Shown here piece by piece: positions 2,641-34,285 of a stretch of 64,000 nt of DNA. Origin of the DNA: an uncultured bacterium (GTDB lineage Bacteria > JAHJDO01); the NCBI GenBank assembly GCA_964437505.1, contig CAYTGU010000005.1:15645-79644 (forward strand), written 5' to 3'. Positions within the stretch are counted from its first letter, which is position 1; each line of letters begins with the position of its first letter. The position numbers were made by a program, and so were the translations under genes. The notes beneath the pieces were generated by a model. That model did not search any database. It was not told the origin of the DNA and worked only from the letters and a program-made list of their open reading frames with translations.

Positions 2641-3978
2641 TTGGTGTATATACCAAATACTTCCATGGATAAAAAAGAAATGTTAGAGACTATAGGATGT
2701 AGATCTATAGATGATTTATTTAGTGGAATAGATCAGAAAGTTAAGGTAAATGGCAAATTAAAGTTGCCGAAATCCCTGTCCGAAATGGAAGTTGCAGCCC
2801 TTATAAAAGAGATAGGAGAGAAAAATACTAATTTGAAAGATTATACATCGTTTCTTGGCGGAGGAGCGTATGAACATTTTATTCCGAGTGTTGTAAAGCA
2901 TATTACAGGCAGGTCAGAGTTTTATACTGCCTATACTCCATATCAGGCTGAAGCGAGTCAGGGGACATTGCAGGCAATATATGAATATCAGTCTCTTATA
3001 TGTGAACTTACTGGAATGGATGTTTCAAATGCATCCATGTATGATGGAGCATCAGCAGTGTCTGAAGCAGCTTTCATGGCATCAAGAATTACAGGACTAA
3101 AGAAGATTATTGTCTCAGAAACGGTTCATCCTAATTATCGTCAGGTTTTAAAGACATATACTGAAGCTGCTGATTTGGAATTGCAAGATATTGCATCCAA
3201 AGATGGAGTGACGGATATAGATATGTTGAAAGAATCGGTAGATGATAATACAGCATGTGTAATAATTCAGAATCCAAACTTTTTTGGATGTATTGAAAAT
3301 ATGGATACTATTGAGCATATTGTCCATTCTAAGAAATCGCTGTTTATTGTGTGCGTTGATCCGATATCTCTCGGCATTTTAGCTCCACCTGAAGAATATA
3401 ACGCAGATATTGTTGTTGGTGAGGGGCAGTCTCTTGGTAATAACCTTGCTTTTGGAGGTCCTTATTTAGGGATTTTTGCCTGCAAGAAGGATTTTCTTCG
3501 GCAACTGCCCGGAAGAATCGCAGGAAAAACAAAGGATAAAAATGGAAAGACAGGATATGTTCTAACTCTACAAACACGTGAACAGCATATAAGAAGAGCA
3601 AGAGCAACTTCGAATATCTGTTCTAATCAGGCTTTAAACGCTCTTGCTTGTACTGTATATCTTTCATGTATGGGAAAACAGGGTATTCCCAGTGTAGGTA
3701 ATTTATGTTTGCAGAAAGCGCATTATGCTCAAAATCAGATTGAAAAGATAGATGGATATACTTTGAAATTCAAGCAGCCGTTCTTTAAGGAATTTCTTAT
3801 ACAATGTCCCAGAAATCCTGAAGAGATTAATAAGAAATTATTAGAGCACAAGATAATTGGCGGTCTCGCAGCTAGCAAATTTTATCCTGAGTTAAAAGAT
3901 TGTATGCTTGTGTGTGTAACTGAGATGAGAACAAAAGAACAAATTGACAGATTCATTGATGTACTTGCCAATATCTGA
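2641..3978 (+). CDS. gcvPA: Glycine dehydrogenase (decarboxylating) subunit 1 (P-protein N-terminal subunit). The start may be the ATG at 2665 (MDKKEMLE).
   Basis: 445 aa with TAYTPYQAEASQG and ASMYDGASA motifs typical of GcvPA. It lies in the gcvT-gcvH-gcvPA gene order. Confidence 0.88.
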   Translation: MVYIPNTSMDKKEMLETIGCRSIDDLFSGIDQKVKVNGKLKLPKSLSEMEVAALIKEIGEKNTNLKDYTSFLGGGAYEHFIPSVVKHITGRSEFYTAYTPYQAEASQGTLQAIYEYQSLICELTGMDVSNASMYDGASAVSEAAFMASRITGLKKIIVSETVHPNYRQVLKTYTEAADLELQDIASKDGVTDIDMLKESVDDNTACVIIQNPNFFGCIENMDTIEHIVHSKKSLFIVCVDPISLGILAPPEEYNADIVVGEGQSLGNNLAFGGPYLGIFACKKDFLRQLPGRIAGKTKDKNGKTGYVLTLQTREQHIRRARATSNICSNQALNALACTVYLSCMGKQGIPSVGNLCLQKAHYAQNQIEKIDGYTLKFKQPFFKEFLIQCPRNPEEINKKLLEHKIIGGLAASKFYPELKDCMLVCVTEMRTKEQIDRFIDVLANI

Positions 3979-4129: not shown

Positions 4130-5164
4130 TCAAAAAGAAATAAATGCCTTAATTACACCGTCTTTGTAATTGGAAACAAGTTCAAATGCTTTAGTGGCCT
4201 CTTCTGCTTTGAATCTATGAGTTATGAAAGGGTCTAATTTTATTCTGCCTTGAACAATATTTTCTACAACTTCAGGAAGCTCTCTACGCTGACGGCGAAT
4301 ATTTATAAGCGTTAATTCTTTTCTGCGCATTTTATCAGGCACAAACGACACGGTTTTTGCTTGGGGAATTCCTATCATTATTAGTTTACCGCCAGGCCTT
4401 AAAATATCCACTGCATGGTCAAGTGTCTCCTGTTTCCCTGCACATTCAAAAACGATATCAATACCGTTTTGGCAGACGCTGTTTATTTTTTCAATAATAT
4501 TTTCTTTACTTGGATTAAATCCATAGTTTATGCCAAGTTTTTTTACAACACCTAATCTTTCATTAATAAGATCAGTTCCAAATATATTTTCCGGATTTTT
4601 TAATTTTGAAAATACCAATACAGATAGTCCTATTGGTCCCAGACCAAGTATTGCGATATTCTGATGAGCTTCCTGTTTACTAATCTTTACAGCATACGAA
4701 CCAATACATAATGGTTCTGTTAAGACTGCTTGTTCAAAGCTCATAGTATCAGGAACGTTACATAAGCTGTTCTCAGGCATTACGATATATTCCGAAAAAG
4801 AGCCTTCTATTTGTCCCGGGCATCCGAGAAATTTAAGACTTCTGCAGGTATTTTCTCTGCCTGTAAGACACTGGTCACACTCCCCACAGGTAATTGCCGG
4901 GTCTATAGCTACCTTATCTCCAATTTTTATCTTTTTAACCTCAGCACCTATATCTTCAACTATCCCCGAACATTCATGTCCTAAGGTAAAGGGATATTCA
5001 ACGACCTGTGAGCCAATTTTCCCAGTCTTATAATAGTGAACATCCGAGCCGCAGATACCAACGGATTTTATTTTAATTAATACATCATCTGAATTGACTA
5101 TCTTTGGCTTGGCAACCTCCAACATCTCAAGTTTTTTGAGTGCTGCAAGTTTGATTGCTTTCAT
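4130..5164 (-). CDS. Zinc-dependent medium-chain alcohol/polyol dehydrogenase (sorbitol/L-iditol dehydrogenase-like).
   Basis: A GICGSDVHYY catalytic-zinc motif, a GHECSG motif, a CGECDQC structural-zinc motif and a GLGPIG Rossmann fold. Confidence 0.8.
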   Translation of the reverse strand: MKAIKLAALKKLEMLEVAKPKIVNSDDVLIKIKSVGICGSDVHYYKTGKIGSQVVEYPFTLGHECSGIVEDIGAEVKKIKIGDKVAIDPAITCGECDQCLTGRENTCRSLKFLGCPGQIEGSFSEYIVMPENSLCNVPDTMSFEQAVLTEPLCIGSYAVKISKQEAHQNIAILGLGPIGLSVLVFSKLKNPENIFGTDLINERLGVVKKLGINYGFNPSKENIIEKINSVCQNGIDIVFECAGKQETLDHAVDILRPGGKLIMIGIPQAKTVSFVPDKMRRKELTLINIRRQRRELPEVVENIVQGRIKLDPFITHRFKAEEATKAFELVSNYKDGVIKAFISF

Positions 5165-5165
5165 T

Positions 5166-6287
5166 TTACGTTAATATTCTTTTTACAACATCTATTGTTT
5201 TTCCTGCATCACCTGTTGCCTGTGCTTTCTTTAGCTCGTCTCGTTTAGCATATATCATCAGAGCTTTTTTCATTACATTAGCAAACAGTTCTCTAGAGAG
5301 AGACATTGCTTTTACAGGGTCCATTCTGTAAGTGAACTGATCTTCTCCAAACCATCCCTGATATCCTGTATCAATTGCTGCGTAACAGAAGTCAGCCAAT
5401 CTCCAATTATCTCCTGTTCCAGCAACTCTGTCCTCATCATTGGAGTGCAATTTTGCATTATTGACATGAAAGTTAGCTACAGGGACGCCGAACTTCTGCA
5501 CTGCATAAAGAGTAAAGGCAGGTTCTACCGCATACATCTGCTCATGACCATAGTCAACACAAACACCCATATTCCTACCTCCACATTCTTCATTAATCTT
5601 TTTGGCAACCAAAGCTGCACAATGAGTGGTAGGAATAATCATATTGCCTTCTCTTGGCTCGTGGAGTTTTGCTTCAACTCCAAATTTCAATCCAAACTTT
5701 TTAGCTTTTTTATTTATCTCGATACATCCTTGTATGAATCTGTCAAGAAGCACGCCATAGTTAGCTTGAAAGTTATAATCCCACCCATCCGAACCAGGCC
5801 AGAGAGCAACGCTTGCGCATCCAACCTCTTTTGCTATCTCAATCCCCTGAAGCACTATCTCAAGCGCATCTTTTCTTACTGTGGGATTTGCATTTGTTAT
5901 TCCCCCAAGTTTCCATTTTGGATCAGTCCAGAGGTTTGTATTCATATTTGTTGGTGTAACTTTATATTTCTTAAGAGCTTTTTTTACTTCATCTATGAGC
6001 TTTTTGTTCTTCCTGTAATTTTTGTCTATAAAAACAGCCTCGTGAAACTCTATTCCCTTTATTCCTGCTTCTGCCACTTTTTGTATTTGAGAAACTATAT
6101 CACTTTTGAAGTTCGTATTATCGCTGTTATACCCGACAGGTGCGAATCTATCGCAGAAGTCCCCTGCGCACCAATGTCCCGCAGCAAACTTTATCTCGTA
6201 TGTTTCAAAGAACTCATCAAGTTTTCCCCCTTCAAGATATCCTGAAAATTTTGGTAGTTGACCTAAGGTGTTTTTGTTTGCTTTCAT
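5166..6287 (-). CDS. Xylose-isomerase-like TIM-barrel sugar isomerase. It is a candidate L-rhamnose (6-deoxyhexose) isomerase of the RhaI type.
   Basis: 373 aa. An N-terminal FAAGHWCAGDFCDRF segment resembles the xylose isomerase metal-site region. Assignment to rhamnose isomerase is by context (kinase and aldolase in the same operon) and is inference. Confidence 0.55.
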   Translation of the reverse strand: MKANKNTLGQLPKFSGYLEGGKLDEFFETYEIKFAAGHWCAGDFCDRFAPVGYNSDNTNFKSDIVSQIQKVAEAGIKGIEFHEAVFIDKNYRKNKKLIDEVKKALKKYKVTPTNMNTNLWTDPKWKLGGITNANPTVRKDALEIVLQGIEIAKEVGCASVALWPGSDGWDYNFQANYGVLLDRFIQGCIEINKKAKKFGLKFGVEAKLHEPREGNMIIPTTHCAALVAKKINEECGGRNMGVCVDYGHEQMYAVEPAFTLYAVQKFGVPVANFHVNNAKLHSNDEDRVAGTGDNWRLADFCYAAIDTGYQGWFGEDQFTYRMDPVKAMSLSRELFANVMKKALMIYAKRDELKKAQATGDAGKTIDVVKRILT

Positions 6288-6358
6288 CCTTTAATATCCA
6301 GATTTTAAAATTACGCTTCTCATAACTGAATTAATGATAGCTTTGGAGAGATTGTTCG

Positions 6359-9349
6359 TCAAGCTAAATCTGCGGACTCAATAACTTCTACTTTACCAAA
6401 TATTCCATAGGGTGCAAACTTATAGTTATCTGTCCATTTTTCTTCATTGCAAAATTCTCCTGGTCCTGTCCATTGCAGTTTCCCTTTATAGTGAAGCGGA
6501 CCAAGCATATTTCTCAGGCTTCCTACAAGCTCAAGACTGATTTTGTTAGTGCCTTTTTTTAGAAGATTTGTAATATCCAGTCCATAAGGCTCCCAGCACA
6601 AAAGACCAGCTTGTCTATTGTTTATCTTTATATTTATTACCGTTGCCTTATGCTTATTAATCTTGAGTATATATTTCCTGCTTTTTCTCTTATCAACAGA
6701 TATATCCTGCTTATATGTTATTGCCCCAGGATAAAATGGAAAGCCTTGTTCTACCCAATCACCTGTTTTGATTGTATCTTTTTGTTTCTCAAGAACAAGA
6801 TTATTCTTATTAACGCTGAAGTCACCGAGTATATAACAATTTTCTAGCTCAACATCCTGTCTATATTTCTTTGTCACAACTAGCAGTTCATTTTTGCCTT
6901 TTTTTGCATATTTAGCTATTGGGATTAGTTTGAAACTTATATCAATGTACCATTCAGGGTTTTTATACGTAACCTTTTTGTTATTAACGAAAATATCGAA
7001 GTTTTGCGGCTCTTCGATCAACAAATTAATATTATTGACAGAAGCTAGATTTGATAAGAATTCGAATCTTAGAGAGACCTTTGCATTGTCTAAGTCTTTC
7101 ATATTCTTGTATGCTTTCCAGAATTGAACACCACTGTTACTCTTTATCTCAGGCAATCCAAAACGTTCCCTGATCTGTTCATGGGCTTTCCATACAGGGA
7201 GCATTCTGCTCCATTTATTATTATTTATCCTGTATCTACAGAAATCAAGTGTCAGAGCATTCATATGAGACAACTCGATATCCCACTTGTCCTCTGAAAT
7301 CGCTACTTTTTGTGTTTCCATTTCCTTTATTTCCACAGCTTTTGGGTTCTTCTTTGGATTTAATAATAGAAGCAATGAACCTGTTGGATATATACGTTCT
7401 TTTGTTTCAGCATATTCTGCAGTATTTGTAGTTCCAACTTCACAGACATCTCCTGTTTCAGTGTTCCATTTTTCGAAAACTCCTTTCCCTTTCATTCTTA
7501 TCGTAAGATTAAACCCTTTTCCCCTGTTTGTGTTAACCAAAAAGAGAAATCTCTTTTTGCCTATTTCTCTGAGCTGATAGATAATGTCTTTTGCGTCGTC
7601 CTTATTCTCGCCTGAAATTTGGACTTCCTTTTTCGAGACTTTATCGAGTGTTTTCTCTATTTTGTGCTTATCGTTATTTATTATCAGGGCATTTTTCTTT
7701 AAAAATTCCGTTATCTCATTATCCAGACTTCCGTCCACTCTATCCGGCAGATTTCCTATGGTTATAATTTTCCCACCTTGTATAGTAAAATCTTTTAACA
7801 GTTTAAATGTATTGCTATTCCATGTGATAGAGCAGGGGATAATTACTGCTTTATATCCAGCTTCTCCAATTACAAATTTCCCATCTTTTACTTTTCCATA
7901 TTTCTCGATTATCATCTCATCCCCGTAATCATAATCTCTGTGAATCTCAAGAAGATTTTTTGAGAGCTTCAAGAATTCCTTGTCTAATTCGTTCAACGCT
8001 TCGGTTCCTTTTGGATGATACACACTCCATGCGCTTCCTATTGGGTGAAGAACTAGAATATCTCTTATAGCTTTTCCCTGAGACAGGATAAAGCTTAGTC
8101 TGCCATAATAATCTTCTACTTTCTTGTAATACTTCCACCATGGAGATTGATAATGGATTGAAGCAGGATAATCTCTCTTTCTGCATCCTTTTAAAGAATA
8201 CAAAGATAGGTGCTGGCATCTGAAGTTTACCCCAAGCGCATACTGCCAATCACCAATCCATTTCTGTCCCTCAAAACTAAAATCCCAGCCTGTGCATCCG
8301 TAAAGTTCTGATAAAACTCTTTCCCGTCCAAGCTGATTTGCAACAGAAGAACACTGTTTTACTGTTAGAATTTCCGATATGCTTTCTGTGAGAATATCTA
8401 TCCCCGGCTGATGCATATACATATAATGTGGCATTGCTGCGCCAATGGCATCGGTTTGAGACTTCAGACTTAGTTCGGAAAGGTAATGCCCTGTTTGCTG
8501 AAGATTGTGCTTTTCGCACCAGTTATAAATATTCTCAGAAAAGCTCTTGAGGAATAGTTCCGTTGCACATTTCCAATAATTATATCTATGTTTTTTAAAA
8601 TCTCCAGTTTCATATATTAAAGAAGGCAAATTATCAATAATACTGTAATTACATCTTGACTTAAAATATTCAGGAAGTTTGTCTGTCCATGGAAGTACAG
8701 CTTTTACTTTCTTTGGTTTGATCTCATCAAAACCAGGCCAATGATGATAATTCGGCTCATCAGTAAAAATACCTGATATTACTTCCCCAAATTTTTCGCC
8801 TGCTTCTTTTAAATAAGCTTCATGAGTGCTTTTTATAAACTCCCGAACTGCTTCCTTACTCATTGTGTCAAGGTATGATGCTCCGTTATACCTTGGGCTG
8901 TCAGGAGCGTACTCAAAGGTTACAACTAATAATTTCTTTTTGGCATTTGGTATGGCCTTTACCAATATCTTTCCTTTAACGTTCTTAACATCTTTTGAAG
9001 AAATTTCCCTAAAAACAATTCCTTTATTTCTATATTTTTTGTTTTTTGATGTAACAATCCCACCTGCTGCCCCGCTCGGGTACCCGTCCTCATCATAAAG
9101 CCATGCGTTCATTCCTGTCTTTTTAGCCTCATCCACACATACTTTTATCATCTTCATCCATTCTTTAGACAAATATTCTGTAATAAGCCCAACTCTTGAA
9201 TGCATGAAAAATCCGCCCATGCCGGACTTTTTCATCTCTCTTATCTGTCTTCTTAATTCATTCTCTTCCAGCTTATCATTCCAGCTCCAGAACGGCGCTC
9301 CCCGCCAATCCTTGCCTGGATCTTTGAATGTTTTTTGTGTCTGACTCAT
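6359..9349 (-). CDS. Large (996 aa) putative glycoside hydrolase. It is a candidate alpha-L-rhamnosidase-like enzyme by context only.
   Basis: The N-terminal segment (RGAPFWSWNDKL ... EMKKSGMGGFFMHSRVGL ... WLYDEDGYPSG) reads like a TIM-barrel glycosidase catalytic domain. No signal peptide is obvious. The family was not confidently recognised. Confidence 0.4.
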   Translation of the reverse strand: MSQTQKTFKDPGKDWRGAPFWSWNDKLEENELRRQIREMKKSGMGGFFMHSRVGLITEYLSKEWMKMIKVCVDEAKKTGMNAWLYDEDGYPSGAAGGIVTSKNKKYRNKGIVFREISSKDVKNVKGKILVKAIPNAKKKLLVVTFEYAPDSPRYNGASYLDTMSKEAVREFIKSTHEAYLKEAGEKFGEVISGIFTDEPNYHHWPGFDEIKPKKVKAVLPWTDKLPEYFKSRCNYSIIDNLPSLIYETGDFKKHRYNYWKCATELFLKSFSENIYNWCEKHNLQQTGHYLSELSLKSQTDAIGAAMPHYMYMHQPGIDILTESISEILTVKQCSSVANQLGRERVLSELYGCTGWDFSFEGQKWIGDWQYALGVNFRCQHLSLYSLKGCRKRDYPASIHYQSPWWKYYKKVEDYYGRLSFILSQGKAIRDILVLHPIGSAWSVYHPKGTEALNELDKEFLKLSKNLLEIHRDYDYGDEMIIEKYGKVKDGKFVIGEAGYKAVIIPCSITWNSNTFKLLKDFTIQGGKIITIGNLPDRVDGSLDNEITEFLKKNALIINNDKHKIEKTLDKVSKKEVQISGENKDDAKDIIYQLREIGKKRFLFLVNTNRGKGFNLTIRMKGKGVFEKWNTETGDVCEVGTTNTAEYAETKERIYPTGSLLLLLNPKKNPKAVEIKEMETQKVAISEDKWDIELSHMNALTLDFCRYRINNNKWSRMLPVWKAHEQIRERFGLPEIKSNSGVQFWKAYKNMKDLDNAKVSLRFEFLSNLASVNNINLLIEEPQNFDIFVNNKKVTYKNPEWYIDISFKLIPIAKYAKKGKNELLVVTKKYRQDVELENCYILGDFSVNKNNLVLEKQKDTIKTGDWVEQGFPFYPGAITYKQDISVDKRKSRKYILKINKHKATVINIKINNRQAGLLCWEPYGLDITNLLKKGTNKISLELVGSLRNMLGPLHYKGKLQWTGPGEFCNEEKWTDNYKFAPYGIFGKVEVIESADLA

Positions 9350-9537
9350 AAATTTTCCCCTTTTCAGTGTTTTATTATTTCTTTGTGTCTTTACCGTACT
9401 GATTATAATTCATGTTGAAAAAACAAGCTATAAGGATTTTAAGAAAAACTAGGAGGGTTTTAGAATTTTCTGTATTCTCTGGGGGAGGTTTTTGTGGATT
9501 CTTTAAATATCTTTGTCATAATTTTCTTCAACGTATC

Positions 9538-10209
9538 TTATAACTCTGAAACAAGTTTTTCTTTTAACAGCATTTTTCTATACGATTCAGCTTCCATATT
9601 GTTGATCTGTTCAGATTGGTTTTTTGTAAAGAATTTCATTTTACCAAGCGATTTTGCTGCTACGAATGTCTTGCAGGCATCTTCAATGAGAAGAGTTCTA
9701 TAATAAGCCTCCTTTAAATTTGATCCAACAGTCAAAAGACCGTGATTGCACATTAGAACAGCGTTGTGTTTTTTTATAACATTTTTCACTTCTTCTGCCA
9801 GTTCTATTCCTCCCGGGAGTACATATTTTATAGTGGGAACATCACCTACCAGTGCGGCAAGATCCGGGGAGAAAGGCTTGAGTGTTATCTCTTGCATTCC
9901 AACTGCAGTAGCAATAGGAGCGTGAGTGTGAATTACAGCAGTTATATCTTTCCTTTCAAGATAACAACCTAAATGCATAGCGATTTCGCATGTCGGCTTT
10001 TTGTTTCCACATACAATATCTCCCGTTTTCAAATCAACTCCTATATAATCTGATGTTTTTGCTTCTTCAAAGCAAATGCCGCTGGCTTTCATATAAACAA
10101 TATTGTCAACTCGCGCGCTTATATTACCGCCCGGACCAACAACCAGTTCCTTGTCAGCAATCTTTTTACCTATTTCTACCAACTGTTTTCTAATTTCAAT
10201 ATTTTCCAT
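9538..10209 (-). CDS. Class II aldolase/adducin-family protein (L-fuculose- or L-rhamnulose-1-phosphate aldolase-like).
   Basis: 223 aa with a GPGGNISARV N-terminal motif and a His-rich metal site (AVIHTHAP) typical of the FucA/RhaD/AraD fold. Confidence 0.8.
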   Translation of the reverse strand: MENIEIRKQLVEIGKKIADKELVVGPGGNISARVDNIVYMKASGICFEEAKTSDYIGVDLKTGDIVCGNKKPTCEIAMHLGCYLERKDITAVIHTHAPIATAVGMQEITLKPFSPDLAALVGDVPTIKYVLPGGIELAEEVKNVIKKHNAVLMCNHGLLTVGSNLKEAYYRTLLIEDACKTFVAAKSLGKMKFFTKNQSEQINNMEAESYRKMLLKEKLVSEL

Positions 10210-10212
10210 TTC

Positions 10213-11397
10213 CTATTTCCCTTTCTCCATTTGTCTCAATGTATGATTTTGTAAAAAATATGCTCCATCCATAAATGTTTTTCTGATAGGGGTTAATTCT
10301 TCAGAGTCAAAGTCATCAACAAGTTTTTGTCCAAACTTGTTCATTTCCGTTCCTGCTATTATCGGAAGATTAAATTTTTTTGCAATTTCTACTGCTTTGT
10401 AGAGATTTTTTACTTTAATTCTTTTTTCCTCTTTGTCCTTTATATTGTAGTTTCTGTCAGGGATTATGTTCATCATTGAAATCCCCTTACCGATCAATAG
10501 ATTAAGTAATTCCTCCAGATTTTTCTCTCCATCAGAAAGTCCGTTAAGCCATGTTGCACACGGAATTCCGCCTAATTCTATTATCATCTTATTTACCGTT
10601 TGAATCTCAGGAAAGGTCGATGAATCCGGCTTTATATATGCGATACCCTCGTTTTTCATAAACTTTGAACGAATTATTTCGCACAGAACATAAGGATTAT
10701 CCCAACTGCTATTGATATCCTCTTCCTGCACTGAAAGTTTTGATCTCCAATATTTGATGAAGCTTGCAGAGTTTTTAAAAACATCTTTTGATTTATTATA
10801 AAAAGCTCTTAGGATGTGTCTTTCCGTGACGTTGTCGTTAGGAGTGAGGGGAATAACGTCTGTATCATATTCAATTCCGATATCGCTCAAATGATCATTT
10901 AATATATCCACCATTTTTCTGGTTCGCAGATGTGCTCGGTGAGACATCTCTTTTAATATTTTATTAGCAAGGGATTCAGTAGAGGGAAGTTTCGTAAATC
11001 CCGTCCCCATCAAGTAGTAGACTCCAGGTTCTCCGGGTGAATTTATCTCTTTATCTTTAAGTTCAGGAATGAAAACTCTGGTTTCTATGCCAACAGAAGC
11101 TTTTAGATTTAACAAGTCAGCTGCATAAAACAGCTCTTCAATTCCGTCCAAAACGTCAAAATCTACTACTTGGCATAACTTAATGCCATTTTTTTTGCAC
11201 AACCATGCTATCTTTATTGGCGAATAGCCATATCCGTTAAATGAAAAAAAACTGTGACAATGCATGTTTGAAATTTCTTTTTCCTTTAACCACTTGACTT
11301 TACCCTTTTTTTTGAGCTTAATAAGTTCCAAGAGAGCGTTTTTTCTTATGTCTTTATCAAAGTTATCAAGATTGGTTTCCAACAGCTCTATCATCAT
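10213..11397 (-). CDS. PHP-domain (polymerase/histidinol-phosphatase-like) metal-dependent phosphoesterase of unknown specificity.
   Basis: 394 aa with an NMHCHSFFSFNG N-terminal PHP motif. It is embedded in the sugar operon between the aldolase and SDR genes. Confidence 0.5.
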   Translation of the reverse strand: MMIELLETNLDNFDKDIRKNALLELIKLKKKGKVKWLKEKEISNMHCHSFFSFNGYGYSPIKIAWLCKKNGIKLCQVVDFDVLDGIEELFYAADLLNLKASVGIETRVFIPELKDKEINSPGEPGVYYLMGTGFTKLPSTESLANKILKEMSHRAHLRTRKMVDILNDHLSDIGIEYDTDVIPLTPNDNVTERHILRAFYNKSKDVFKNSASFIKYWRSKLSVQEEDINSSWDNPYVLCEIIRSKFMKNEGIAYIKPDSSTFPEIQTVNKMIIELGGIPCATWLNGLSDGEKNLEELLNLLIGKGISMMNIIPDRNYNIKDKEEKRIKVKNLYKAVEIAKKFNLPIIAGTEMNKFGQKLVDDFDSEELTPIRKTFMDGAYFLQNHTLRQMEKGK

Positions 11398-12188
11398 CTC
11401 ATTTCCTGTCCGCCGGTTACATTTATTGCCTGACCAGTCATGTAAGAGGCTTCATCACTTGCCAAAAAAGCTACTACATTGATAACATCGTCATAGGTGC
11501 AGCCTCTTGCTAACGGAACTTGTTCTATATATTTTTCCCTTACCTCTTCCTTTGAAATACCCCATTTTTTTGAATATTGCTCAAAGAGACTGTTTTTCCA
11601 TAAAGGAGAATCAAGAAAATTTCCGGGACAAACTGAATTAACTCTTATGCCATATGGAGCAAGATCCAGAGCAATACTTTGAGTTAGTCCTATGCCTCCA
11701 AATTTAGATGCAGCGTATGCAGAATTTTTAAAACTGCCTTTTTTACCTGATTTAGAGTTAATTTGTATAATCGTACCCTTCTTTTGTCTTTTCATCATCT
11801 TTGCTGCTTCACGTGCACATAAGAAATACCCAATGAGGTTTACATCAATCACTTTTTTCCATTCATTGAGCGGAAATTCTGTTATTTCCTTTGCGATAAG
11901 AATTCCAGCATTACTGACTAATATATCTAGATTCTTAAATTCTTTCTCAATCTTTTCAAACATACTGATTACCTGAGCTTCTTGTGTTACATCTACCTCT
12001 ATAGCAACTGCTTTAATTTTGTATTTTTCCTCTATCTCTTTAGCTACTTTTCTTGCATTTCTTTCTGATATATCTGCAACTGCTACCTGACATCTCTCTT
12101 TTGCAAAATATTCTGCTATTGCCTCTCCGAATCCTTGTCCTGCACCAGTTACTAAAACCGTTTTGCCCTTCAAACCAGGTTGTAACAT
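11394..12188 (-). CDS. Short-chain dehydrogenase/reductase (SDR) family oxidoreductase.
   Basis: 264 aa with a TGAGQGFGEAIA cofactor motif, NAG and the YAASK catalytic tetrad region. Confidence 0.85.
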   Translation of the reverse strand: MLQPGLKGKTVLVTGAGQGFGEAIAEYFAKERCQVAVADISERNARKVAKEIEEKYKIKAVAIEVDVTQEAQVISMFEKIEKEFKNLDILVSNAGILIAKEITEFPLNEWKKVIDVNLIGYFLCAREAAKMMKRQKKGTIIQINSKSGKKGSFKNSAYAASKFGGIGLTQSIALDLAPYGIRVNSVCPGNFLDSPLWKNSLFEQYSKKWGISKEEVREKYIEQVPLARGCTYDDVINVVAFLASDEASYMTGQAINVTGGQEMR

Positions 12189-12216
12189 TTTATGGAATCT
12201 CCTCTTATTTGTATTT

Positions 12217-13323
12217 TTATGGTTTTATAACCACTTTTAAAGCGTTTCCTTTTTTATCTAGCATTTTTTCCATCGCTTCAACTATGTTTTCTAAAGAAAA
12301 TATATGTGTAACTATTTTATCCATAACTAGTTTTTTGCTAACAATTAGTTTTAAAGCTTCTTCAAATTGTGATTTATGTGAAGCAAAAGCTCCGTAAATA
12401 GAAACTTCTTTGTAATGAATTATGTTCCCGTCCAATTTTAAAATAGAATTCTGTTTCGGGAATCCGGCAAAAAAGCTCAATCTTCCTTTCATAGCCATTG
12501 CACCTAAAAAATCCTCTGCTACTTTGCTAACAGAGCATGCAACTATTCCAACGTCAACCCCTTCGCCCTTAGTGATTTCTGATATACTCTGTACTAAATC
12601 AGCATCTTTAGTGGCAATATAATGGTCAAATCCAAATTCTTTTGCTTTTGTAAGCCTCTCTTCAGAATATTCAGCCAGTATAACCTTTGCTCCCTTAGCT
12701 TTTGCCAGTAGACAATGCATCAAGCCAATAGGTCCTGCTCCTACTACGGCAACGTACTCACCTCTTTTAATGTTTAGATAATTCTGCCCGTTTATTGCGC
12801 ACGAAAGCGGTTCAATCATTGCCAGATATTCATCGGAAATAGGCGCATCGCTTAGGACAGGGATTATAACACCCTGTTTTACAGCACGGTCCTGAACTAA
12901 TATGTATTCGGCAAAGCCTCCGGGATAATAATATCCAATAGGTTTGTTATTAGCGCACATATTATAATTACCTTCTCTGCAAGGTCTACACTCTTTCTTT
13001 TGGCAGCCTACTGAAGTTACCATGATTACTTTGCTTCCAATCTCGTATTCCCGATTTTTGACTTCAGAACCAATTTCTTCTACGATTCCTACGATTTCAT
13101 GTCCTATGATAAATTTGCCCTCGCCATATCCTCGAATTTGGGGAACGGATCCTTTAGTAGCGTCCTTTGTGCCTTCATACATTCTCCCGTCTGTTCCACA
13201 AACAGCGCAAGCGGTAACTTTTATAAGCACGTCGTTCTCTTTACAATTCGGCTTTGGAACGTTTTCAGTTCCCATATGTTTAGGTCTGTCCGTGTATAAA
13301 AAAGCGGCTTTCATTTCTTGCAT
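12217..13323 (-). CDS. Zinc-dependent medium-chain alcohol dehydrogenase family protein.
   Basis: 368 aa with a CAVCGTDGRMYEG catalytic-zinc motif, a CQKKECRPCREGNYNMC structural-zinc motif and a GAGPIG motif. Confidence 0.8.
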   Translation of the reverse strand: MQEMKAAFLYTDRPKHMGTENVPKPNCKENDVLIKVTACAVCGTDGRMYEGTKDATKGSVPQIRGYGEGKFIIGHEIVGIVEEIGSEVKNREYEIGSKVIMVTSVGCQKKECRPCREGNYNMCANNKPIGYYYPGGFAEYILVQDRAVKQGVIIPVLSDAPISDEYLAMIEPLSCAINGQNYLNIKRGEYVAVVGAGPIGLMHCLLAKAKGAKVILAEYSEERLTKAKEFGFDHYIATKDADLVQSISEITKGEGVDVGIVACSVSKVAEDFLGAMAMKGRLSFFAGFPKQNSILKLDGNIIHYKEVSIYGAFASHKSQFEEALKLIVSKKLVMDKIVTHIFSLENIVEAMEKMLDKKGNALKVVIKP

Positions 13324-13338
13324 TTAGTTTCTCCTGAT

Positions 13339-14814
13339 TTAGTTTTTTAATTTATGGTTTTTGTATCTTTTATAAGCTTCTTCCCAGATATCTGTTTGTT
13401 CAGGTTCATATCTGATGAGTTCAAACGAGTTTCGAACAATTTCTCTTGCCTGTTTAACGGATGAAAGCTCACCCGTTGCAATGGCCTGTATCAAAATATT
13501 GCCGATTGCAGTTGCTTCAACAGGTCCGGCAATAACTGGTTTTTGAGTTGCATTTGCGGTAAGTTGGCATAAAAGCTTATTTTGTATTCCTCCTCCGACA
13601 ATGTGGAGTACATCTATTTTTCGCTTTCGCATTTCTTCGAGTTTTTCAAGAACCTGACGATATTTAAATGCCAGACTTTCAAGAATACAGCGCAGGATAC
13701 TTCCCCTATCAGATGGAACTTTTTGATTTGTTTTGCGACAGTAATTCTGAATTTTTTCCGGCATGTTGCCAGGCTTTAAAAAAGCTGTGTCTTCAGGATC
13801 TATAAAACAGAAAAACGCTTCTGCCTTTTCTGCTTGTTTTGTTAAATCAGGGTAGGAAAGTTTTATATTTTGCGATTCCCAGCTTCTTTTGCATTCCTGA
13901 ACCAGCCAGAGTCCCATGATATTTTTTAGGAAACGAAATGTATTGTTTACGCCTCCTTCATTAGTGAAATTATTTTTTAATACTTCCTGATTTATCAATG
14001 GACTGCTTATTTCGCATCCCATTAAAGACCACGTGCCGGAACTTAAAAATGCCCAGTTATTTCCTTCAGCTGGAACAGCCGCAACTGCTGCTGCTGTATC
14101 ATGCGATGCTGTAGCAATGACAGGTATTTGAGGTATTCCCAGTTCTTTAGCTATGAACGGTAGGAGCTTTCCTGTGACAGTTCCTGGATTTACAACCTGC
14201 GGCATTATTTCACAAGGAATGTTTAAATTTTTTAGAATTTCATTACTCCATCCATTCTTGCGCGGATCATAACACTGAGTGGTAGTAGCCAAGGTAAACT
14301 CTGCTGCTTTTTCTCCAGAGAAGAAGTAACTAAACAGGGCCGCTATCGGCAGGAGACAATCCGCCGATTTAAGAAGGTAGGGCTGATTTATTTTCATCCA
14401 TAGTAGTTGGAAAAGTGTATTTATTTGCATGAATTGAACGCCTGTTTTTTCAAATACTTCTTCCCGCGGAACTTTTTTGAAACATTCTTCCATCATTCCA
14501 TCAGTCCGACTGTCCCTGTAATGCAGAGGATTTTCTAATAGATGGTTATTTTTATCAATGAGCCCGAAATCTACGCCCCAGCTATCGAATGCAATTGCGG
14601 CGATTTCAGACTTGTTGCACTTTTGCAATCCTTTTTTTATCTCATTAAAAAAGTTTATGGAGTCCCAGTAGAGAATGTTATTAAATCTTGTACCTCCTGT
14701 AGTAAATCTATGTTTCTCTTCAAGGACTATTTTCTTCCCATCAAATTTGCCAAGTATTAATCGTCCACTTTCTGCGCCTAGATCAACAGCTATGTAATTT
14801 TTGCTTTTTCCCAC
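13339..14814 (-). CDS. rhaB: FGGY-family carbohydrate kinase, rhamnulokinase-like.
   Basis: 491 aa. The N-terminus YIAVDLGAESGRLILGKF...HRFTTGG...ILYWD follows the rhamnulokinase pattern (AVDLGASSGRV...HRF..G....V.WD). Confidence 0.65.
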   Translation of the reverse strand: MGKSKNYIAVDLGAESGRLILGKFDGKKIVLEEKHRFTTGGTRFNNILYWDSINFFNEIKKGLQKCNKSEIAAIAFDSWGVDFGLIDKNNHLLENPLHYRDSRTDGMMEECFKKVPREEVFEKTGVQFMQINTLFQLLWMKINQPYLLKSADCLLPIAALFSYFFSGEKAAEFTLATTTQCYDPRKNGWSNEILKNLNIPCEIMPQVVNPGTVTGKLLPFIAKELGIPQIPVIATASHDTAAAVAAVPAEGNNWAFLSSGTWSLMGCEISSPLINQEVLKNNFTNEGGVNNTFRFLKNIMGLWLVQECKRSWESQNIKLSYPDLTKQAEKAEAFFCFIDPEDTAFLKPGNMPEKIQNYCRKTNQKVPSDRGSILRCILESLAFKYRQVLEKLEEMRKRKIDVLHIVGGGIQNKLLCQLTANATQKPVIAGPVEATAIGNILIQAIATGELSSVKQAREIVRNSFELIRYEPEQTDIWEEAYKRYKNHKLKN

Positions 14815-14923
14815 AGTAAATTCCTTATCATTCAGACTCTGGCAACATTATGCCATAATTCTTTATTTATTTAAAACAAAATTTATGATATTCTTGCGTT
14901 ATTGAAAGTGAGGGACATGGGTT

Positions 14924-16012
14924 ATGTTGAATGTTGTTATTATGGCAGGTGGAAAAGGGGAAAGATTTTGGCCAAAGAGTAGAGAAAAAAGCCCTAAACA
15001 GCTATTGTCAATAGGTTCAAAAAATACCATGCTTCAGGAAACAGTAAAAAGAGCGCAAGCTCTAACTTCTTCAGAAAATATTTTTATAGTTACACGGGCT
15101 GAGTTGGAGGGTGAGATAATTAAGCAGATTTCTCCTATTCCAAAAGAAAATATTATAAATGAACCGTTTGGTAGAAATACTGCAGCTGCAATAGGTCTTG
15201 CAAATATAGTTATTCAGAAGAGAGATAGTATTTCAAGAGATAAAAGTTCCATTATGGTTGTGTTGCCGGCTGACCATATCATAAAAGACGTCAGACAATT
15301 TAAAAAGACAATAGCTGTTGCCTCTATAGCGGCTGAAGAAGGACATCTTGTTACAATAGGTATAAAACCAAACTATCCTGAAACTGGTTACGGATATATT
15401 CATAGGGGGAACAAGGTATCTAGTGATATACAGGGTGTTTTTAAAGTGAAAGAATTTAGAGAAAAGCCTGATTTGAAAACTGCAGAAGAGTTTTTAAAAA
15501 AAGGGGAGTATTATTGGAACAGCGGTATGTTTGTATGGACAGGGAAAGAAATAGAAAAAGCATTTAAAAAGTATATGCCTAAACTTTCTCACGCTCTAAA
15601 GGTTATAGACAATTCTCTTTCATCTTCGTACCTGGATAAAGTTATAAAAGAGGAGTATGAGAAACTGGAGAAGGTCTCAATTGATTATGGAGTTATGGAG
15701 AAGGCAGAGAATGTAAGCGTTATAGAGGGGCTTTTTGACTGGAATGATGTGGGCTCATGGCTAGCTCTGGAGAAAGTTTATAAAAAAGATGATAATAATA
15801 ATATCGTTGTGGGAGATTATGTAGGCATTGATACAACTGATTGCATATTAATAGGGGATAAGAGTCCAATAACTACTATGGGTGTTTCGGATTTGATTAT
15901 TGTAAACACAGGAGATGTTGTACTTGTCTGCAAGAAAACAGAGGCTCAGAAAGTGAAAGAATTATTGAAACATATTAAGAAGAATAAAAAACTTTCCAAA
16001 CTAGTTAAATAA
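14924..16012 (+). CDS. manC: Mannose-1-phosphate guanylyltransferase (no cupin/PMI domain).
   Basis: Contains VIMAGGKGERFWP...PKQLL, the nucleotidyltransferase signature of ManC/CpsB. Confidence 0.85.
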   Translation: MLNVVIMAGGKGERFWPKSREKSPKQLLSIGSKNTMLQETVKRAQALTSSENIFIVTRAELEGEIIKQISPIPKENIINEPFGRNTAAAIGLANIVIQKRDSISRDKSSIMVVLPADHIIKDVRQFKKTIAVASIAAEEGHLVTIGIKPNYPETGYGYIHRGNKVSSDIQGVFKVKEFREKPDLKTAEEFLKKGEYYWNSGMFVWTGKEIEKAFKKYMPKLSHALKVIDNSLSSSYLDKVIKEEYEKLEKVSIDYGVMEKAENVSVIEGLFDWNDVGSWLALEKVYKKDDNNNIVVGDYVGIDTTDCILIGDKSPITTMGVSDLIIVNTGDVVLVCKKTEAQKVKELLKHIKKNKKLSKLVK

Positions 16013-24191: not shown

Positions 24192-25301
24192 TTATTTTTT
24201 ACTTCTCAAAAATGTTGGAATGTCCAGATTGCTGTCACCACCCAGCTCTCTGTTTACTTTTTCCAGCATAACCCGATCCTTTATCATAGTTTCTTTCCCG
24301 TGAACTCCCAATGCCTTTGAAACGAATTTTACTTCCTTTTTCTCCAAAGATGGAATATCAGTAGCAATAATTGTAAGTTTCAGCATATTGTTTAGTCTTT
24401 TATCTATAATAGCTCCGAATACTATATTAGCGCTATGTATTACTGCTTTACGAACATTATCAATAATCTTTTCAACTTCTCCAAACCTGAGATCTTCACC
24501 TCCTGTTATATTGACAAGCATTGTTTTTGCACCTTTGATATCAATCCCTTCTATGAGTGGACATAGAAGAGCATTTTTAACAACAGAGGATATTCTGTCT
24601 TCACCATATGCAGTTCCCACTGCTAAGGTAGCTTCTTTGCCATGGGTTATTACCTGCTGAATGTCCGATATATCAAGATTTATTATTCCTGGAGCAGCTA
24701 CAAGGTCAGAGATTGCGCTAATAGCGTCGAATAAAGTGTCATTTGTAAATTCAAATGCTTTTGAGAAAGAAGAGTCTTTGTCAATGGTTCCAAAAAGTTT
24801 CTGGTTTGGTATGGAGATTATTGCGTTGGATTTTTCTTTTATTGCTCTTAGTCCATCTTTGGCCTGCATACATCTTTTTTTTCCTTCAAATAGAAAAGGG
24901 CTTGTAACTATTGCTATTGTTAACGCCCCTAGTTCCCTTGCAATTTCACAGATTAGTGGGGTTGCTCCTGTGCCTGTTCCGCCACCAAGTCCGCAGGTCA
25001 CAAACACGATGTCTGAGTTTTTTAATGCTTCGGCAATTTCTGCTCTGCTTTCATTCAGGCTTCGACGTCCTAAGTCTATATCAGAACCCGTTCCAATTCC
25101 TCTCGTTGTCTGCAGACCAATCTGAATTTTATGGGGAACAATAGATGTCCTAAGAGCCTGAATATCTGTGTTAATGTTAATACATTCTACTCCGGAGAGG
25201 CCTTTTTTGTATATTGCATCTACAGAATTATTACCACCTCCACCAACTCCAACTACCTTGATACTTGCGCCTACTTTGGTCTCTTCAACTATCTCAAACA
25301 T
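24192..25301 (-). CDS. ftsZ: Cell division GTPase FtsZ.
   Basis: Contains IKVVGVGGGGNN and the GGGTGTG tubulin signature. An AAAGGAG RBS precedes it. Confidence 0.95.
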   Translation of the reverse strand: MFEIVEETKVGASIKVVGVGGGGNNSVDAIYKKGLSGVECININTDIQALRTSIVPHKIQIGLQTTRGIGTGSDIDLGRRSLNESRAEIAEALKNSDIVFVTCGLGGGTGTGATPLICEIARELGALTIAIVTSPFLFEGKKRCMQAKDGLRAIKEKSNAIISIPNQKLFGTIDKDSSFSKAFEFTNDTLFDAISAISDLVAAPGIINLDISDIQQVITHGKEATLAVGTAYGEDRISSVVKNALLCPLIEGIDIKGAKTMLVNITGGEDLRFGEVEKIIDNVRKAVIHSANIVFGAIIDKRLNNMLKLTIIATDIPSLEKKEVKFVSKALGVHGKETMIKDRVMLEKVNRELGGDSNLDIPTFLRSKK

Positions 25302-25320: not shown

Positions 25321-25554
25321 TTAGATTGCTTTCCCTAATCGCTCTGCCAGCCATACCTTGATAACAGATTGACGAGGCACCCCTAGACGCTTTGCTTCCT
25401 TATCCAATGAGTGAATCATCCAAATAGGGAAGTCCACATTAACCCTTTTCTGGTCTTGCTCAAGCCTTCTCGCCTTTGTAAGATCTAGATACTTAGAAAC
25501 GTTATTCCCTTCATCAAACTTTTTATCAAACTCTCTAGCTTTCATATATTTCAA
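25321..25554 (-). CDS. brnA: BrnA-family antitoxin (CopG/RHH-like), the antitoxin half of a BrnT/BrnA type II TA pair.
   Basis: 77 aa, overlapping the upstream toxin gene. The sequence ...LDKEAKRLGVPRQSVIKVWLAERL is a typical BrnA C-terminus. Confidence 0.7.
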   Translation of the reverse strand: MKYMKAREFDKKFDEGNNVSKYLDLTKARRLEQDQKRVNVDFPIWMIHSLDKEAKRLGVPRQSVIKVWLAERLGKAI

Positions 25555-25795
25555 CCTCCTCTTTTCGGGATTGTCTTACTGAAATAATTCTTATCTTTTC
25601 GCCGCGATAGGTAACAACTCCTGACCAATGCTTTCCAGAAATCATACCAATTACCAAATATCTTGGTTCATCACTGGTTCTTGCCGGAATTTCAATTAAG
25701 TCAGTATCCTCCCATAATAACTGCGCTTCAATAAAGTCAATACCATGTTTATTCTTATTGATTTCGCTTTTCTTAAGGTCAAACTCAAACTCCAT
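25535..25795 (-). CDS. brnT: BrnT-family toxin (DUF497/COG2929 ribonuclease toxin). The ORF is open to 25825, but the likely start is MEFEFD at 25795.
   Basis: MEFEFDLKKSEINKNKHGIDFIEA...YLVIG...VVTYR matches the BrnT N-terminal pattern (MKFEWD..K...N..KHG). Confidence 0.7.
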   Translation of the reverse strand: MEFEFDLKKSEINKNKHGIDFIEAQLLWEDTDLIEIPARTSDEPRYLVIGMISGKHWSGVVTYRGEKIRIISVRQSRKEEVEIYES

Positions 25796-33590: not shown

Positions 33591-33920
33591 TCAAGAAATC
33601 TCTATGCCGAATTTTCTAATCTCAATAATAAGCGGAGAATCATGATTTCTGTATTCTTGCAGAGAAACAGGAATTGGTTCAATACGAGTATCTATCCTGC
33701 GGGTTTTTTTTAAAAGAAATTGAAGTTCGTCTGTGGTGTCCTTCCCGAATTTAGAAGAAATAATGCAAAGGTCAATGTCGCTTTCTTTTTTTGCTTTCCC
33801 TCTGGCATAGGAACCAAAAAGAATTAATTTCTCAACAGGCGTACCTTCTTCCTCTAAGAGATTTCTAAACCTTAAAGCGATATTTTGTATGTTTTTTCTT
33901 ATAGTTTTCTTTTTAGCCAT
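33591..33920 (-). CDS. Nucleotidyltransferase (MNT-type), the antitoxin partner of the HEPN toxin.
   Basis: 109 aa with the GSYARG...DIDL minimal nucleotidyltransferase motif. It overlaps the HEPN gene. Confidence 0.8.
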   Translation of the reverse strand: MAKKKTIRKNIQNIALRFRNLLEEEGTPVEKLILFGSYARGKAKKESDIDLCIISSKFGKDTTDELQFLLKKTRRIDTRIEPIPVSLQEYRNHDSPLIIEIRKFGIEIS

Positions 33921-34285
33921 AGATATATGTCCTTCGCTCTCTTAAAATATCCTTCCGTATATTCTTTAGTTGCTTTTTTGAAAAATTTGCGTTTATAGTC
34001 ATTATACCTTGCCTCAATGTTAAAACTGGTTATTTCAGCCAAAAGATCTAATTGTTCTTCAGAAAATTCGATACCACTTAATTCTGACAATCTTACTAAA
34101 TTATGTACATAAGGAGCTTGCTGTTTTGTTTTCTTGACCACCAATGATTTAATAATCTTCTCAAGAAATAAATGACAAAAGAAAAGACAATGATGATATC
34201 TCTTTGAGATGAAAAGACTTTTAGCGGTTTTAAGGTCATCTTCAGCCCCTTCAAACCAGTAATTAATCATCTCGCTAATTTTCAT
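33899..34285 (-). CDS. HEPN-domain protein, the toxin of a HEPN/MNT type II or VII TA module.
   Basis: 128 aa helical protein with the typical HEPN layout and an E..RY-like C-terminal region (NIEARYNDY). It is co-oriented with, and overlaps, the MNT gene. Confidence 0.75.
   Translation of the reverse strand: MKISEMINYWFEGAEDDLKTAKSLFISKRYHHCLFFCHLFLEKIIKSLVVKKTKQQAPYVHNLVRLSELSGIEFSEEQLDLLAEITSFNIEARYNDYKRKFFKKATKEYTEGYFKRAKDIYLWLKRKL

Follow-up and report, generated by a model that had tools for sequence, protein, structure and literature searches.

A probable two-module locus for the catabolism of glycosidically bound 6-deoxy-L-hexoses in an uncultured bacterium

We analyzed a 64,000-nucleotide stretch of DNA from an uncultured bacterium (GenBank assembly GCA_964437505.1, contig CAYTGU010000005.1, positions 15,645 to 79,644 of the forward strand; hereinafter the window), in which eight consecutive minus-strand genes (4130-14814) code for a putative glycosidase, a sugar kinase, an aldolase, an isomerase-like protein, three dehydrogenases and a PHP-fold protein. 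Our preferred reading, to which we assign a probability of roughly 0.65, is that this string serves the breakdown of a 6-deoxy-L-hexose held in glycosidic linkage, most likely L-rhamnose, and that it consists of two modules (A and B) that have been joined only in this lineage. An earlier note, made from the sequence of the window, had described the same genes as an operon for rhamnose-type (6-deoxyhexose) utilization of the RhaI/RhaEW subtype; the general functional prediction stands, whereas the subtype and the single-operon origin do not. The relevant features, in the direction of transcription of the string and followed by its divergent neighbor, are:

13339-14814, minus strand: RhaB-family FGGY kinase, 491 aa; first gene of module A
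12217-13323, minus strand: Zn-dependent medium-chain dehydrogenase of the polyol/threonine-dehydrogenase type (the first alcohol dehydrogenase, ADH), 368 aa; module A
11394-12188, minus strand: short-chain dehydrogenase/reductase (SDR) of the SrlD type, 264 aa; module A
10213-11397, minus strand: PHP-fold metal enzyme of an uncharacterized, widespread family, 394 aa; module A
9538-10209, minus strand: class II (Zn) aldolase, FucA-like, 223 aa; last gene of module A
9350-9537: spacer between the modules, 188 nt; contains an ~85-nt block conserved in a relative
6359-9349, minus strand: GH106-family glycosidase of the Ram106B type, probable alpha-L-rhamnosidase, 996 aa; first gene of module B
5166-6287, minus strand: predicted xylose-isomerase-fold aldose-ketose isomerase of a small family, 373 aa; module B
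4130-5164, minus strand: second Zn-dependent medium-chain dehydrogenase (second ADH), 344 aa; last gene of module B
14815-14923: manC-kinase spacer, with an inverted repeat (TGGCA-N6-TGCCA, 14840-14855); candidate control region for module A
14924-16012, divergent: manC-like neighbor with NTP_transferase and ManC_GMP_beta-helix domains

The eight open reading frames (ORFs) were recovered with the coordinates and order first described, and every domain call of the earlier note held, that of the PHP protein by structure prediction only. Strong Pfam matches were obtained for seven of the eight proteins (FGGY_N/C for the kinase, ADH_N and ADH_zinc_N for both Zn-dependent dehydrogenases, adh_short, Aldolase_II, Glyco_hydro_106 and AP_endonuc_2). 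The SDR and PHP genes overlap by 4 nt, the PHP and aldolase genes are separated by 3 nt and the isomerase and second ADH genes by 1 nt; with the other gaps measuring 15, 28 and 71 nt, the genes are tightly packed inside each of two blocks, which are parted by the 188-nt gap (9350-9537) between the aldolase and glycosidase genes. The ORF positions bear out the earlier description of the aldolase and the SDR as separate genes with the PHP gene between them, and the manC-like gene (14924-16012) is indeed transcribed away from the string from a shared intergenic region. As described earlier, the string contains no transporter or regulator gene; there is none close by either, and an Rfam search of the locus recovered no riboswitch or other RNA element. 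Both the GC and the AT skew are negative over exactly the eight-gene block and flip in sign at either end.

Comparison with other genomes indicates that the string is a composite of module A (9538-14814) and module B (4130-9349), which adjoin only in this lineage. In two loci from close relatives (L093 and L094; we cite loci by such numbers where they have to be told apart), the glycosidase, isomerase and dehydrogenase genes lie beside gcvP-gcvH-gcvT-priA as they do in the window, but are preceded by unrelated genes, with no module A; the dehydrogenase is an ADH in L094 and an SDR, in the same position, in L093. In a further relative (L013), manC is divergent from the kinase, ADH, SDR, PHP and aldolase genes, which are followed by unrelated genes, with no module B; in the close relatives L008 and L014, a DeoR regulator gene is divergent from ADH, SDR, PHP and aldolase genes, with no kinase. 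The manC-kinase spacer is ~95% identical between the window and L013, where the encoded proteins are 86-88% identical, and the ~85-nt block upstream of the glycosidase gene is ~80% identical to L094, despite the different upstream gene there. Since the modules are separate in relatives and each has its own conserved upstream region, we take them to be two units joined in this lineage: the eight genes do share a strand, as the earlier note had it, but they do not form a single ancestral operon.

The perfect inverted repeat of the manC-kinase spacer, 28-44 nt ahead of the kinase start, is a candidate operator, one base shorter than a canonical sigma-54 promoter would require. A reading of TGGCATAATGTTGCC as a sigma-54 promoter was rejected, its GG-to-GC spacing being one base under the consensus. 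Promoter and terminator sites were no more numerous in a scan of the locus than after shuffling, and the 188-nt gap had no convincing site that would speak for or against transcription of both modules as one unit. Upstream of the glycosidase module in L093 and L094 are genes for prepilin-type N-terminal/SBP_bac_10 proteins and for 1500-aa proteins, that of L093 having Laminin_G_3 and GH42 domains and that of L094 no Pfam match; this points to surface glycan capture, for which genes are lacking at this position in the window.

The earlier note had staked its reading on a rhamnose-related match for the 996-aa glycosidase, and such a match was found: the protein belongs to GH106 (PF17132, 64 bits against a gathering threshold of 29, E=1.7e-17). 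It has more than 7000 homologues, all with PF17132 and named only 'glycosyl hydrolase'. A 28-sequence profile of the family aligned with BT0986 (5mqm; E=3e-33) in four stretches that are collinear from the N- to the C-terminus. In these, the catalytic base E593 of BT0986 corresponds to E348, which is invariant in the 28 homologues, whereas the residues that bind Ca in BT0986, E538 and E561, have H288 and D318 as their counterparts. The same combination relative to BT0986, a conserved base Glu together with His and Asp at the positions of E538 and E561, is reported for the Ram106B alpha-L-rhamnosidases, intracellular, metal-dependent enzymes such as TM1074 of Thermotoga maritima, and the characterized members of GH106 are alpha-L-rhamnosidases (PMC6828813). 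Read directly, the sequence of the window glycosidase has no N-terminal signal sequence. It is thus probably a cytoplasmic GH106 enzyme of the Ram106B type with alpha-L-rhamnosidase activity. Homologues occur inside Chloroflexota loci with RhaA and RhaB (L028, L030 and L092), while those on plasmids (Monoglobus, Paenibacillus) lie in glycan-degradation contexts that leave specificity unfixed. As a separate observation, the GH106 homologue in L028 and L092 is flanked by genes for nitroreductase-family and ASRT (Anabaena sensory rhodopsin transducer family) proteins, just upstream of RhaA; the T. maritima rhamnose cluster also has an ASRT-family gene.

The kinase scores 506 bits with the rhamnulokinase model TIGR02627, a near miss of its cutoff of 528, and 444 bits with the RhaB model NF007925 (cutoff 639), as against 161 bits with E. 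coli-type fuculokinase, 115 with xylulokinase (XylB) and 70 with glycerol kinase; a comparison with the latter two, set beforehand as a check on the kinase family, thus came out clearly for rhamnulokinase. Among solved structures, it is best matched by 4c23, the L-fuculose kinase of Streptococcus pneumoniae (340 bits), and by 2cgj, the RhaB of E. coli (326 bits). It shares 39.5% identity with E. coli RhaB, 27% with FucK and ~50% with Chloroflexota kinases encoded next to RhaA or FucI, and in a neighbor-joining tree it grouped with neither the RhaA-linked nor the FucI-linked kinases. The protein is probably a RhaB-family 6-deoxy-L-ketohexose 1-kinase, acting on rhamnulose or fuculose.

The aldolase (Aldolase_II, 153 bits) is best matched among NCBIfam models by those of the FucA type, below their cutoffs (130 bits against 264 for NF005302; 75 against 400 for TIGR01086); the E. 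coli-type RhaD model gives 49 bits, and no RhaEW model (such as TIGR02632) is among its 25 best NCBIfam matches, the weakest of which scores 45 bits. Its best PDB match is the S. pneumoniae fuculose-phosphate aldolase FcsA (4c24, 91 bits), and it is 28% identical to E. coli FucA over the full length and 26% identical to RhaD over part of it. E75 together with the H-x-H and H motifs aligns with E73, H92, H94 and H155 of E. coli FucA, so the catalytic Glu and the three His ligands of Zn that a class II aldolase requires are kept. By these comparisons, the window aldolase is FucA-like, and of neither the RhaD nor the RhaE type.

Searches with the 373-aa isomerase recovered 3ktc (E=2e-26), a 'xylose isomerase' from structural genomics, as well as class I xylose isomerases (E=1e-23) and the Pseudomonas stutzeri L-rhamnose isomerase (E=6e-10). 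It is nearest to true aldose-ketose isomerases, and not to sugar-phosphate epimerases; a best score with the latter is what the earlier note had named as telling against its reading. With the RhaI models it scores only 57 bits (TIGR02635, cutoff 531) and 44 bits (TIGR02629, cutoff 647), compared with 581 bits for a genuine RhaI from locus L038. H82, E205-x-K207, D245-x-x-H248 and D284-x-D286 are in register with the catalytic and metal-binding residues of xylose isomerase, whose counterparts in the Actinoplanes enzyme we take to be H54, E181/K183, E217/H220 and D255/D257. The protein is probably a xylose-isomerase-fold aldose-ketose isomerase that acts on the released sugar. Its family is small, with 607 representatives at E<1e-3 among 1.84 billion and 33 at E<=1e-30. 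A metagenome scan of 80 neighborhoods of the family separated two branches. In the branch at 55-65% identity, the isomerase gene occurs with those for an aldehyde:ferredoxin oxidoreductase, a class II aldolase, a RhaB-like kinase (~500 bits with TIGR02627) and an Ldh_2-family dehydrogenase, a set that, judging by the families, makes up a full route from deoxyhexose through lactaldehyde and lactate to pyruvate. In the branch at ~40% identity (L145, L150, L154, L159, L163, L166 and L170-L173), it lies directly upstream of a gene for a ribulokinase that passes the cutoff of its model (627 bits), and genes for an AraD-like protein, a HAD phosphatase and an SSF transporter are often present as well. 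Such an arabinose-like cluster suggests a non-orthologous replacement of the L-arabinose isomerase AraA. From these contexts, the family appears to supply the isomerase step in pathways built from an isomerase, a kinase and an aldolase of the class II family, and its specificity probably differs between the two branches.

The SDR passes the cutoff of the sorbitol-6-phosphate dehydrogenase model NF009050 (392 bits against 307) and matches the solved Erwinia amylovora SrlD (PDB 5o3z) with 253 bits, whereas the RhaW half of RhaEW (positions 412-670) gives 191 bits, no better than many generic SDR models. PGAP-style naming would label it 'sorbitol-6-phosphate dehydrogenase', which in this context is probably wrong, since the locus has neither a phosphotransferase system (PTS) nor sorbitol genes, arguing against sorbitol-6-phosphate as the substrate. 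The two Zn-dependent ADHs, which share 26% identity, are both predicted to be of the polyol/threonine-dehydrogenase type, without a specific assignment: the first is best matched in NCBIfam by IolM-like (192 bits) and Tdh (190 bits) models, all far below cutoff, and the second by a Tdh-like model (218 bits, below cutoff). Genes like that of the second (ADH8-like) recur beside the isomerase family in metagenomes. The first ADH was also considered as an orthologue of a 574-aa ADH found in Chloroflexota, and this was rejected (21% identity in two short stretches).

Models indicate that the PHP-like protein has the fold of the COG0613-type PHP phosphoesterases, although its Pfam score (PF02811, 19.6 bits, E=1.3e-3) is below the gathering threshold of 26.4. 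H46-x-H48 and E105 are kept and are invariant in the family, but the full ligand set of a trinuclear center (H-x-H...D, H, E, H, H, D-x-H) is absent: in two independent, though weak, alignments (3e0f, E=0.004; E. coli RNase AM by hhalign, E=0.039), F53 takes the place of the motif I Asp and F80 that of the motif II His, and after the last strand, where D-x-H is expected, the family has an invariant E351-x-N353 (N353 placed by model position only). It is through these three positions that characterized PHP phosphatases hold their third metal. The third metal site therefore appears to have been lost, as far as such weak alignments can indicate, which would explain the failed Pfam match. More than 5000 homologues, all 'hypothetical', were found, with ~48% identity in Anaerolineae; tblastn against 72,556 plasmids gave no match. 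No relevant work emerged from literature searches for the combination of PHP, SDR and kinase or for a phosphatase acting in the breakdown of rhamnose, and a 2013 comparative study of rhamnose pathways mentions no phosphatase.

A scan of species-representative genomes recovered at least 593 relatives of the PHP-like protein. The best 80 are nearly all from Chloroflexota metagenome-assembled genomes (MAGs); the others are from a planctomycete, a Hydrogenedentes genome, a Zixibacteria genome and three close bacterial relatives. Clustering of neighbors within 8 kb in 81 loci, with identities confirmed by Pfam and NCBIfam, gave the following partners:

Atypical 574-aa medium-chain dehydrogenase/reductase: 53 of 81 loci
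Class II aldolase of ~253 aa: 48 of 81
SrlD-like SDR: 45 of 81 (orthologues of the window SDR, scoring 334-380 bits)
Zn-ADH: 24 of 81
RhaB-like kinase: 22 of 81
Pyruvate-dehydrogenase-type E1 and E2: 19 and 15 of 81, with E3 also in 3
DeoR regulator: 18 of 81
Mannitol-1-phosphate-dehydrogenase-like protein: 17 of 81
DUF89/ARMT1: 14 of 81
RhaA: 14 of 81
RhaM: 9 of 81
FucI: 7 of 81
PfkB kinase: 7 of 81
D-lyxose/mannose isomerase: 6 of 81
RhaI: 4 of 81

Ribose-type ABC transporters are also common in these neighborhoods. The RhaA, FucI and RhaI representatives pass their NCBIfam cutoffs, and the RhaM representative passes the Pfam cutoff only (72 bits against 99.6 for TIGR02625). One or more 6-deoxyhexose genes occur in 35 of the 75 distant PHP-linked loci; depending on the set, ~40-47% of the loci have a RhaA, RhaM, RhaI, FucI or RhaB-like gene. 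The Chloroflexota aldolase next to the PHP gene matches only the N-terminal RhaE half of the RhaEW models; a split layout of RhaE-like aldolase, PHP, ADH and SDR is thus real in Chloroflexota (Anaerolineae), but is not that of the window. Elsewhere, the PHP, SDR and kinase genes form a trio of their own, away from any aldolase gene (L042, L023), or belong to FucI loci that have no such gene close by (L056, L072, L083). Two Chloroflexota loci (L065, L073) have an inositol-3-phosphate-synthase-like gene between those for the 574-aa ADH and the SDR, and combine a RhaD-like aldolase (167 bits, cutoff 170) with a RhaE-like one in a single operon; with two aldolases present, the second may serve something other than rhamnulose-1-phosphate cleavage. 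Several other Chloroflexota loci (among them L010, L017, L018, L022, L047, L060 and L083) have genes for URO-D-like, pterin-binding and B12-binding proteins in or beside the PHP/ADH/SDR core, one of the URO-D-like proteins being fused to a LacI regulator. Such proteins are components of a corrinoid methyltransferase system, and their presence hints that O-methylated sugars are demethylated.

Taken as a pathway, the locus would work as follows. The cytoplasmic GH106 glycosidase would free the sugar from an imported oligosaccharide or glycoside, the xylose-isomerase-fold enzyme would turn the aldose into the 2-ketose, the RhaB-family kinase would form the ketose 1-phosphate, and the FucA-like aldolase would cleave this to dihydroxyacetone phosphate (DHAP) and L-lactaldehyde. 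The SDR and the Zn-ADH of module A could then oxidize lactaldehyde to lactate and/or reduce it to propanediol, or could act on the sugar phosphate itself, and the Zn-ADH of module B might act on a product. The PHP-fold enzyme would carry out a further step on a phosphorylated intermediate, by default the hydrolysis of a sugar phosphate, either as a relief valve or as a true step of the pathway. While the gene content, family assignments, conserved catalytic residues, conserved neighborhoods and composite origin are shown, we infer which sugar is used, in what order the steps follow, what each of the three dehydrogenases does and what activity, if any, the PHP-like protein has.

Several points weigh against this reading. 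The 64-kb window has no transporter, regulator or mutarotase. The rhamnosidase specificity of the glycosidase is predicted from distant characterized relatives. The best solved match of the kinase is a fuculose kinase, and with the S. pneumoniae enzyme in the same subfamily, rhamnulose and fuculose cannot be told apart by family; likewise, the rhamnulokinase model gives 474-495 bits to the FucI-linked Chloroflexota kinases and 494-502 to the RhaA-linked ones. That the SDR passes a sorbitol-6-phosphate dehydrogenase cutoff points to a sugar-phosphate substrate, not to lactaldehyde. The failure of the isomerase with both RhaI models, along with the ribulokinase and AraD-like partners of its ~40% branch, makes specificity for L-rhamnose or L-fucose uncertain. 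Of the 33 PHP-linked loci whose flanks reach 8 kb or more in either direction (complete loci), only 13 have a 6-deoxyhexose gene, and 19 have genes for lyxose/mannose isomerase, mannitol-1-phosphate-dehydrogenase-like, PfkB or DUF89 proteins. Finally, the canonical pathway needs no PHP enzyme, which leaves at least one conserved gene unexplained.

These points bear differently on the alternatives. That the sugar is L-fucose or another 6-deoxyhexose, handled by a fuculose kinase and a fuculose-1-phosphate aldolase as in the S. pneumoniae fucose operon, strikes us as rather unlikely, although some points favor it: the S. pneumoniae fuculose enzymes are the top solved relatives of both the kinase and the aldolase, the latter is nearer to FucA than to RhaD, and the FucI-linked Chloroflexota kinases are as near to the window kinase as the RhaA-linked ones. 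The glycosidase speaks for rhamnose, both by its membership of GH106 and by its Chloroflexota homologues adjoining RhaA, as do the 39.5% identity of the kinase to E. coli RhaB and the partners of the PHP module, which include RhaA, RhaM and RhaI in 14, 9 and 4 loci compared with FucI in 7. Very improbable, in our estimate, is a third option, in which module A is a pathway for hexitols or sugar-alcohol phosphates that merely lies beside a rhamnosidase module. The SDR score, the polyol/threonine-dehydrogenase type of both Zn-ADHs, the ADH, SDR, PHP, aldolase and DeoR genes of the kinase-less L008 and L014, and the many Chloroflexota PHP cores that lack a rhamnose gene but are accompanied by genes for mannitol-1-phosphate-dehydrogenase-like, PfkB, DUF89 and lyxose/mannose isomerase proteins would all suit it; but module A starts with a RhaB-family kinase, which is conserved in L013, 6-deoxyhexose genes occur in the 35 distant loci counted above, no PTS or hexitol transporter is present, and the isomerase family of module B is found elsewhere with RhaB-like kinases and aldolases.

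A more far-reaching proposal, which we consider unlikely, is that the kinase, SDR and PHP-like trio, with at least one ADH, constitutes an undescribed phosphorylative branch of deoxyhexose catabolism in which the PHP-like protein, its third metal site lost, is no simple phosphatase, and that the isomerase is a third non-orthologous type of L-rhamnose/L-fucose isomerase. If this were true, the PHP-like protein could, for example, be a hydrolase that yields DHAP and L-lactate; the routes for the two sugars would then converge, and lactaldehyde would not be set free. The non-phosphorylative pathways for rhamnose and fucose have 4-dehydrogenase and diketo-hydrolase steps, and by analogy an aldolase-independent branch can be drawn, in which the SDR and/or a Zn-ADH would oxidize C4 of the 6-deoxyketohexose 1-phosphate and the PHP-like enzyme would hydrolyze the resulting 2,4-diketone to DHAP and L-lactate. 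It would account for the trio in loci without a nearby aldolase, for its presence in both RhaA and FucI loci, whose ketose phosphates differ only at C4, a difference that oxidation would erase, and for the likeness of the SDR to an enzyme oxidizing a secondary alcohol of a sugar-alcohol phosphate. The replacement of third-metal ligands by F53 and F80 (and, by position only, N353) and the pyruvate-dehydrogenase-type E1/E2/E3 genes that often follow, which fit lactate and pyruvate as products, are also consistent with it. We nonetheless hold this specific chemistry to be quite unlikely: the window, like 20 of the 33 complete loci, does have an aldolase, the alignments behind the metal-site prediction are weak (E=0.004 and 0.039), and diketone cleavage is without precedent in the PHP fold, all characterized members of which, to our knowledge, hydrolyze phosphoesters, with none known to cleave C-C bonds.

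Set against known systems, the rhamnose-type locus proposed here shares with E. coli rhaBAD/rhaM the logic of isomerase, 1-kinase and class II aldolase and a RhaB homologue, but its isomerase is not RhaA, its aldolase is FucA-like with only partial similarity to RhaD, and it has an additional SDR, two Zn-ADHs and a PHP-like gene, with no mutarotase, transporter or AraC-type regulator. As in the RhaI/RhaEW variant (Bacillus subtilis, Chloroflexus aurantiacus, rhizobia; PMC3870299), there are an isomerase of the xylose-isomerase superfamily and a class II aldolase with an SDR; however, the RhaI/RhaEW label of the earlier note has to be abandoned, as the isomerase reaches 57 of the 531 bits required by the RhaI model, the aldolase is not RhaE-like, and the SDR is unfused and scores best as SrlD (392 bits against 191 for RhaW). 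The S. pneumoniae FcsK/FcsA system (4c23, 4c24) provides the best solved relatives of the kinase and aldolase, but its operon uses FucI, FucU and GH29/95/98 glycosidases and lacks GH106, a xylose-isomerase-like isomerase, PHP and SDR. The T. maritima cluster with Tm_Ram106B (TM1074; PMC6828813) likewise encodes an intracellular GH106 enzyme without a signal peptide, and with the same His and Asp replacements and base Glu, together with rhamnose catabolic genes; these are RhaA, RhaB and RhaD, with ABC transporters. The solved COG0613-type PHP phosphoesterases (BAD_1165, 3e0f/3o0f; Cv1693, 2yb1; RNase AM, 9etk) are 12-17% identical to the window PHP-like protein, which differs in having Phe at the Asp position of motif I and the His position of motif II and in its sugar-catabolic, rather than nucleotide or RNA, context. 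A putative phosphatase in such an operon has a parallel in AraL, a HAD-family sugar phosphatase encoded in the B. subtilis arabinose operon. There too the gene lies inside an operon for an isomerase, a kinase and an aldolase of the class II family, and the arabinose-like branch of the isomerase family also has a HAD phosphatase; the window protein, however, is of the PHP fold, and its conservation reaches much further across phyla.

Outside the sugar locus, the window is given over to housekeeping genes: a cell-division/murein cluster, genes for the synthesis of fatty acids and aromatic amino acids, and those for tRNAs and RNase P RNA. The DNA comes from a metagenome (ENA ERZ27316109, JGI 3300023262). 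The FtsZ that it encodes shares 83-96% identity with that of a few bacterial MAGs and at most 46% with everything else, a drop from which we infer that the host organism belongs to a deep lineage. The otherwise conserved ftsQ-ftsA-ftsZ cell-division cluster is interrupted, between ftsA (26558-27772) and ftsZ (24192-25301), by a minus-strand insertion (25321-25795) with a BrnT-toxin/CopG-antitoxin pair and a 192-aa ORF without a Pfam match. What looks like a second pair of the toxin-antitoxin type, HEPN/nucleotidyltransferase (MNT-like), is found on the minus strand at ~33591-34285, between the SurA-like and RNB-family ribonuclease genes. The subunits of the glycine-cleavage P protein are encoded 47 kb apart (2641-3978 and 51058-52509), subunit 1 following gcvT-gcvH beside the sugar locus and subunit 2 far downstream.

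Rhamnose and fucose are major parts of plant, algal and bacterial glycans, and their catabolism is usually regarded as solved. The PHP-like family, with its more than 5000 members, is nevertheless fixed in operons of this kind across Chloroflexota and several candidate phyla, together with an SrlD-like SDR and an atypical ADH, and its conserved place in them implies that at least one conserved enzymatic step has yet to be accounted for. The isomerase-like protein, for its part, is probably a new type of deoxyhexose isomerase: the small xylose-isomerase-like family to which it belongs seems, depending on the lineage, to stand in for RhaA/RhaI or for AraA, and such a replacement, if borne out, would improve the annotation of sugar use in uncultured bacteria.

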